The position numbers and the translations under genes were made by a program. From a virus (Duplodnaviria; Heunggongvirae; Uroviricota; Caudoviricetes), in IMG/VR virus record IMGVR_UViG_2609459850_000003: a stretch of DNA of 8,164 nucleotides; one strand, 5' to 3'. The first letter of the stretch is position 1. Each line of letters opens with the position of its first letter. Below the pieces are notes generated by a model. It had not been told where the DNA came from. It saw only the letters and a program-made list of their open reading frames with translations, and ran no database searches. This document shows, piece after piece, positions 1-442 of this stretch.

Positions 1-215
1 GCAAGAACAAAACGGCCATCAACATCGAATACATGAAAGCCAGCATCCGTGCCAGGGTGGAGCACCCGTTTCGCATCATCAAGCGGCAGTTCGGCTTCGT
101 GAAAGCCAGATACAAGGGGCTGCTGAAAAACGATAACCAACTGGCGATGTTATTCACCCTGGCCAACCTGTTTCGGGTGGACCAAATGATACGTCAGTGG
201 GAGAGATCTCAGTAA
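1..215 (+). CDS. insH: IS5-family DDE transposase, C-terminal fragment (5' end outside window)
   Basis: Open frame from the window start to TAA at 213-215; the C-terminal sequence ...[22 protein letters not shown] matches the recalled InsH/IS5 transposase C-terminus. Confidence 0.85.
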
Positions 216-362
216 AAACCGGAAATAACGCCAGAAATGGTGGAAAAAATAGCCTAAATAGGCTGATTCGATGTGTTTGCGGGAAAAAAATTGGCCCAGA
301 TCCGCGAAATTTTAATCAGCGAGTCAACTTGGGAAGAAATGACCTGCTTATTCGCACCTTCC
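1..362 (+). mobile_element. IS5-family insertion sequence, 3' end (truncated by window start)
   Basis: The window opens inside a transposase reading frame. The 16-bp terminal inverted repeat cttattcgcaccttcc at 347-362 is the reverse complement of the canonical IS5 end GGAAGGTGCGAATAAG. The internal sequence differs somewhat from my recollection of K-12 IS5, so this may be a variant. Confidence 0.85.
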
Positions 363-442
363 CAAGGATTTTGACTCATGGAAGAGTCCTTTTTATTTAA
401 ATTTCACATTCAGCGCTAAAAATAATCCGATTTAATATTAAT

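Follow-up and report, generated by a model that had tools for sequence, protein, structure and literature searches.

An ISKpn26 end lies beside rzpQ in a Qin-like prophage of Escherichia coli 3-105-05_S4_C3, and the apparent bracketing by two insertion sequences very likely reflects contig breaks

Insertion sequences of the IS5 family have 16-bp terminal inverted repeats, GGAAGGTGCGAA(C/T)AAG. The 220 IS5 target duplications that have been reconstructed show a strong YTAR motif, and in mutation-accumulation lines the IS5 events were mostly simple insertions (758 of the 857 IS events) (PMC5009759). One ISKpn26 copy, in acrR, is flanked by the target duplication CTAG (PMC8023600). In the Qin cryptic prophage the lysis module runs essQ-ydfR-rrrQ-rzpQ/rzoQ and is followed by cspI. 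All the components of the locus described here are already known, namely, ISKpn26, a Qin-type lysis cassette with an Rz/Rz1 pair, and IS1, and it is their arrangement that is examined below.

The window, that is, the whole stretch of DNA that was analysed, is 8,164 bp long and is the entire contig JNMD01000105.1 of the draft assembly GCA_000700065.1 of E. coli 3-105-05_S4_C3. Our overall reading, which we hold to be very likely, is that an ISKpn26 end lies beside rzpQ in a Qin-like prophage and that the IS-bounded look of this DNA is due to contig breaks. The features of the window are the following.

1 to 362, plus strand: 3' portion of ISKpn26 (IS positions 835-1196 of 1,196; 100% identity to ISKpn26 copies)
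3 to 215, plus strand: C-terminus of the ISKpn26 DDE transposase, 70 residues, pointing at rzpQ (Pfam DDE_Tnp_1, E=3.7e-8)
197 to 400, plus strand: junction-spanning ORF of 67 residues (KDT48670.1, AD43_4858), running from the IS tail into the flank
347 to 362, plus strand: 16-bp terminal inverted repeat CTTATTCGCACCTTCC, intact by its sequence, with the same terminus in 273 distinct IS5/ISKpn26 ends
363 to 366, no strand: tetranucleotide CAAG flanking the IS, which would be one copy of a target duplication outside the consensus or else the point at which a deletion was joined
363 to 442, no strand: rzpQ-proximal part of the rzpQ-cspI intergenic spacer, 80 bp, colinear with IS-free genomes
373 to 398, plus strand: terminator-like hairpin GACTCATGGAAGAGTC with a T-run (consensus scan, a pattern match only)
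443 to 940, minus strand: rzpQ, Rz-like i-spanin, intact (Pfam DUF2514, E=1.9e-38; PHROG 312 'Rz-like spanin', E=3e-58; RefSeq name)
493 to 762, minus strand: Rz1-like o-spanin ORF embedded in rzpQ (PHROG 11621 'Rz-like spanin', E=2.6e-8; translation)
937 to 1470, minus strand: rrrQ-type phage lysozyme (Pfam Phage_lysozyme, E=2.6e-24; RefSeq annotation of identical DNA)
1584 to 1844, plus strand: 86-residue ORF, also annotated, overlapping the ydfR-family gene
1792 to 2343, minus strand: ydfR-family (DUF1327) gene, a 183-residue protein in some annotations and a truncated pseudogene in the RefSeq annotation of identical DNA
2754 to 3467, minus strand: AraC-type regulator, cargo block
3874 to 4833, minus strand: YbgA/DUF1722 protein, cargo block
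5026 to 5550, plus strand: lipocalin, cargo block
7831 to 8164, minus strand: IS1 end, 334 bp, the second contig-end repeat (sequence; Pfam DDE_Tnp_IS1, E=5.7e-48)

The element at 1-362 is the right-hand (transposase 3') end of an ISKpn26 copy of the IS5 family. It corresponds to positions 835-1196 of a complete 1,196-bp ISKpn26 that is flanked by the target duplication TTAG (locus L014, 667-1862), and the 3' 362 bp of ISKpn26 in more than 1,000 E. coli records, chromosomes as well as plasmids, match it at 100%. This identity spans the transposase C-terminus, the 147-bp non-coding tail between the transposase stop and the end of the element, and the 16-bp repeat, which at 347-362 is the right-end copy. 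With K-12-type IS5, on the other hand, the same 362 bp are 87% identical overall (coding part 96%, non-coding tail 74%), and over whole elements ISKpn26 and K-12-type IS5 are 90.5% identical. Thus, the window copy shares with the IS5 of E. coli K-12 the family, the terminal 16 bp and a transposase stop about 150 bp from the end, but at 87% over 362 bp it is not IS5 proper. Membership of the IS5 family follows from the DDE_Tnp_1 transposase and from the element being nearer to ISKpn26 than to IS5, judged on 362 of 1,196 bp. The window copy differs from other ISKpn26 copies in that only 30% of the element is visible and in its flank, which is CAAG and not TTAG as in the target duplication of locus L014. 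The first-pass annotation of this DNA had placed an IS5-family element about 80 bp from Rz and this was correct, the repeat ending at 362 and the Rz stop being at 443 with a spacer of 80 bp between them. Its description of the element as a variant of the K-12 IS5 copy also holds, the variant being ISKpn26 (100% against 87% to IS5), and the IS1 that it had put at the other end of the window is indeed there, at 7831-8164.

In IS-free E. coli genomes the 100% match begins precisely at base 363, and the base preceding the junction is T in these genomes (...ccttaagattt/caaggatttt..., the slash marking the junction point) whereas in the window it is C, the last base of the IS. Therefore, the junction between the IS and the prophage lies between 362 and 363. 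The 67-residue ORF that crosses it at 197-400 is probably not a real gene and it matched no Pfam family, but since its sequence depends on this junction it was used as a unique junction tag. By exact-sequence look-up it is on one contig only, JNMD01000105.1, and exact-protein look-up of the minus-strand junction ORF at 254-379 gave no record. The junction was not found in 5,426 complete RefSeq E. coli genomes, and the exact junction search gave 0 matches in species-representative genomes and 0 in metagenome contigs. A match in NCTC10444 at 99% coverage was considered as the same junction and was rejected because it consists of two pieces across an extra 560 bp and represents another insertion. 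Being found on a single contig and in none of the complete E. coli genomes, the ISKpn26 insertion is strain-specific, and it is recent because ES3, of all relatives the nearest (3 mismatches in 7,802 bp), has no ISKpn26 at the site adjacent to rzpQ.

That the junction is on one contig only, and that this contig comes from a draft short-read assembly, could also be taken to mean that the join is a chimeric misassembly and that no IS stands beside rzpQ in the real genome. We regard this as very improbable and have rejected it because the break coincides exactly with the IS terminus. The terminal repeat is intact up to its last base, where the join falls, and from the following base onwards the window reads as IS-free genomes do; a misjoin at random would not stop so precisely at the IS terminus. 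In addition, no k-mer that could have produced a false join is common to the IS end and the locus.

Within the 80-bp spacer the hairpin at 373-398 lies 10 bp outside the IS end and is oriented opposite to rzpQ transcription. In the consensus scan, which was run on the identical ES3 sequence (locus L002, 8011-8026), this was the sole terminator-like hairpin and no intrinsic terminator was found after rzpQ on rzpQ's own strand. Over the 9 kb examined of IS-free DNA, the annotation has no gene on the plus strand upstream of the hairpin. In the window the transposase gene converges on rzpQ, and the hairpin would halt transcription read out of the transposase gene. An Rfam scan of the window found no RNA family.

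The locus that the IS abuts in E. coli 3-105-05_S4_C3 is a Qin-like lambdoid prophage, and a defective one. Located on its minus strand are rem, a 92-residue ORF, ydfU (DUF968), the Q antiterminator, the YbgA protein, the AraC-type regulator, the holin gene essQ, ydfR, rrrQ and rzpQ/Rz1, and on the plus strand the lipocalin gene. Gene order and RefSeq names agree with the lysis module of Qin, but the window variant differs from Qin in having the AraC-HTH, YbgA and lipocalin genes as cargo between Q and the holin. This cargo block, at 2754-5550, is where cspB and cspF sit in other Qin variants. The spanin gene comes directly after the endolysin gene, rzpQ overlapping the stop of the lysozyme gene by 4 bp (937-940), and the RzpQ protein is listed in 16,550 index blocks by exact-protein look-up. 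The o-spanin ORF at 493-762 on the minus strand has the lipobox ...LIVLTSC and a proline-rich mature part, with an alternative start at 747. Both marks of a two-component Rz/Rz1 spanin are thus found, that is, an i-spanin gene after the endolysin gene and an embedded out-of-frame ORF with a lipobox. The Rz1-like ORF is missing from the GenBank and RefSeq gene lists seen for this DNA. From these sequence comparisons the lysis cassette appears to be intact, with nothing lost to the right of the junction, towards rzpQ.

Between the two IS ends lie 7,468 bp (363-7830) that are present in many E. coli genomes at 99.5-99.9% identity. At least 80% of bases 363-8164 can be found in 274 genomes, where the segment is in its normal prophage context. 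Beyond rzpQ the IS-free relatives have cspI, ymcF, ynfN, gnsB and an ORF of 68 residues. Next come the small terminase (DUF1441), the large terminase, the portal and a ClpP-capsid fusion, and then head-tail proteins, tail proteins and the tape measure. In relatives, therefore, this Qin-like variant retains the full terminase-to-tail module, and the present strain is unlike the IS-free Qin-like relatives in that ISKpn26 parts rzpQ from what comes next. The terminase allele of ES3 is in 279 index blocks, and GCA_000700065.1 is not among the matches listed. No bor-like gene was found beyond rzpQ in the IS-free relatives; where the first-pass annotation had expected bor-like genes after Rz, these genomes have cspI-ymcF-ynfN-gnsB. 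Its claim that the IS truncates the late region is likewise unsupported, the window ends being contig breaks and the DNA on the rzpQ side being complete. It had also suggested that a comparison with IS-free prophages would define what was deleted. For the rzpQ side the comparison shows that nothing is missing, and for the far side it gives what the relatives carry, which is cspI to gnsB and the packaging, head and tail module.

At the other end of the window the closest relative, ES3, has an identical junction between rem and IS1, and there the IS1 is complete at 768 bp (locus L002, 15469-16236). This IS1 has no 9-bp target duplication and rem is joined across it straight to dicB, which belongs to the same prophage, whereas in IS-free relatives rem is followed by hokD. 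An IS1-linked deletion at the rem end of the ES3 prophage is thus indicated, and that prophage is in any case defective. Judged from the common junction of rem with IS1, the strain studied here probably shares this deletion. If the far side of IS1 matches ES3, then this prophage also lost the region between rem and dicB.

From the presence of an IS at each end of the contig, and from this only, one could imagine that the two IS form a composite transposon-like unit that moves the 7.5-kb segment with its lysis and antiterminator genes. A composite transposon needs the same IS or compatible ends, and here the two elements are of the IS5 and IS1 families, whose transposases and ends are unrelated and cannot pair. 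Moreover, the segment is in a normal prophage context in the 274 genomes mentioned above and in ES3 the gene after IS1 is dicB, which is part of the same prophage. We have rejected this explanation, the probability of which is negligible.

Contigs of draft assemblies stop within multicopy IS elements. In the window, position 1 is position 835 of ISKpn26, and an exact block of 50 bp that ISKpn26 and IS5 have in common spans positions 834-883. The identical 70-residue transposase fragment is at contig ends in at least 81 index blocks from other draft assemblies of several enterobacterial species. If the shared blocks cause the breaks, a mirror break is predicted at the edge of the other shared block, 426-478 (53 bp), and this was seen in other assemblies, where a 136-residue N-terminal transposase fragment is in 179 index blocks and the contigs stop at IS position 477/478. 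None of these fragments is from GCA_000700065.1 among the 10 of 179 matches listed. Draft contigs of many unrelated assemblies stop at ISKpn26 positions 477/478 and 835/836 (loci L144-L163), and such recurrent stops mark genomes that carry both ISKpn26 and IS5 and can be reused as a sign of this artefact. The most likely explanation is that the assembler could not cross repeats which share exact blocks with other IS copies, and that the contig would therefore end on both sides. Because the window is a whole draft contig that ends inside repeats, the bracketing by two IS stems from the assembly, and the 7.5-kb phage island cut off by two IS appears to be an assembly artefact. The bracketing of this segment by two IS, which the first-pass annotation had presented as a structure, is thus not supported, both window ends being assembly breaks. 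The lesson for method is that a window which starts and ends in an IS may be a draft contig, and its ends are then uninformative on genome structure.

The flank of the IS, CAAG, does not match the YTAR consensus, and this mismatch is a property of the insertion site and not of the element. Its weight was estimated from a sample of 273 distinct IS5/ISKpn26 end flanks taken from two viral-contig scans and other loci, in which 240 of the 273 flanks (88%) were YTAR and 33 were not. Among 65 distinct complete copies, 44 had a 4-bp duplication and 42 of these were YTAR, while 10 of the 12 complete copies with a non-YTAR flank were without a target duplication, that is, they were at rearrangement junctions. 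ISKpn26 normally duplicates a 4-bp YTAR target, and in a simple cut-and-paste insertion the target here would be CAAG in the rzpQ-cspI spacer. CAAG/CTTG can serve as a target because an ISKpn26 copy in IMGVR_UViG_3300007990_000013 has a true 4-bp duplication of CTTG, which is CAAG on the other strand (loci L182, minus strand 3857-4462, and L090, minus strand 1-581, with the left junction also in L183 and L195).

The other explanation is that ISKpn26 marks a deletion or rearrangement in which the DNA after rzpQ was lost or moved. Its size could be anything from a few bp to the whole of cspI-gnsB with the packaging and tail genes, and in the latter case the late region would end at base 363. The off-consensus CAAG, when set against YTAR in 240 of the 273 flanks, and the 10 of 12 non-YTAR complete copies without a duplication argue for such an event. 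So do duplication-less copies of ISKpn26 or its family that are accompanied by gene loss in this very module. In NCTC10444 (locus L164, 1667-2861) ISKpn26 stands between TTAG and CTAT, lacks a duplication and is accompanied by the loss of ynfN and gnsB. That copy is of the same IS, shares its orientation and also lies in the moron region that separates the lysis cassette from the terminase, but its site is at ymcF, about 560 bp farther from rzpQ, and it is an independent event. In CP145714 (locus L138, 3588-4783 and 7410-8605) there are two IS5-family copies in the same prophage module, of which one is a simple insertion with a CTAA duplication and the other, flanked by CTAG and TTAA, is accompanied by deletion of the whole lysis cassette. 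The IS1 at the other end, deletion-linked in ES3 and without the 9-bp duplication, is a further point in favour. Against a deletion, the window itself is without loss because IS-free genomes are colinear with it from the first base after the IS onwards, the insertion is recent as seen from ES3, which is 3 SNPs away and lacks this ISKpn26 copy, new IS5 events are dominated by simple insertions (PMC5009759), and CTTG/CAAG is already a genuine duplicated target elsewhere. Homologous recombination between two IS copies was considered as the source of the CAAG flank and was rejected because it would leave a YTAR flank.

These points were weighed as follows. The prior was set at about 4:1 for a simple insertion, and the likelihood ratio was about 3.6 against it because about 24% of the ends in copies without a duplication are non-YTAR as compared to about 7% of the copies with one, which brings the outcome near 50:50. 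A simple cut-and-paste insertion at the off-consensus CAAG therefore has about an even chance, and we put a deletion or rearrangement marked by ISKpn26 at somewhat under an even chance. Loss of the whole packaging and tail module is unlikely. Behaviour of the IS outside what is described for IS5, either an off-consensus CAAG insertion that alters cspI expression or a deletion adjacent to the IS end without target selection, is improbable. Deletions of the latter kind seemingly account for about 4% of the IS5/ISKpn26 ends in the sample, and we know of no established mechanism in the IS5 family for IS-end-adjacent deletions without target-site selection.

If the insertion is simple, cspI and the packaging, head and tail genes would continue on the far side of the IS. 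The left junction would then read ...CCCTTAAGATTTCAAG/GGAAGGTGCGAACAAG, the slash again marking the junction point, and the left end of ISKpn26 would join ...AAGATTTCAAG, with the IS 283 bp upstream of the cspI start codon. ORFs at this modelled junction are two of 24 residues and one of 94 residues that is antisense to the transposase, and none of them is one that a gene caller would plausibly annotate. A -35/-10 pair for cspI, TTGCTA-17-GTTAAT, was located by eye, and the insertion point is about 103 bp upstream of it; the pair was not among the hits of the consensus scan. The cspI leader is about 145 nt long, and this fits the promoter that was located by eye. Thus, after a simple insertion the cspI promoter would stay intact, and about 138 bp would separate the IS from the inferred start of cspI transcription downstream of it. 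IS5 insertions activate nearby promoters, as at glpFK, bgl and flhDC, and the distance of about 138 bp to the cspI start would be comparable to that in these cases if the insertion is simple. The difference is that the end which putatively faces cspI is the transposase 5' end and not the 3' end, and it is the 3' end of IS5 that carries the activating IHF-binding and bent-DNA region.

For the biology of this prophage the finding has little weight because a known IS has inserted a single time, in a single strain, between two genes of a cryptic prophage that is widespread. The lineage of this prophage had previously been remodelled by IS1, and ISKpn26 would put the downstream late genes 1.2 kb farther from the lysis genes. 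What is mildly unusual is the non-YTAR flank: either ISKpn26 would here have used a rare secondary target, or the flank would mark a deletion adjacent to the IS.
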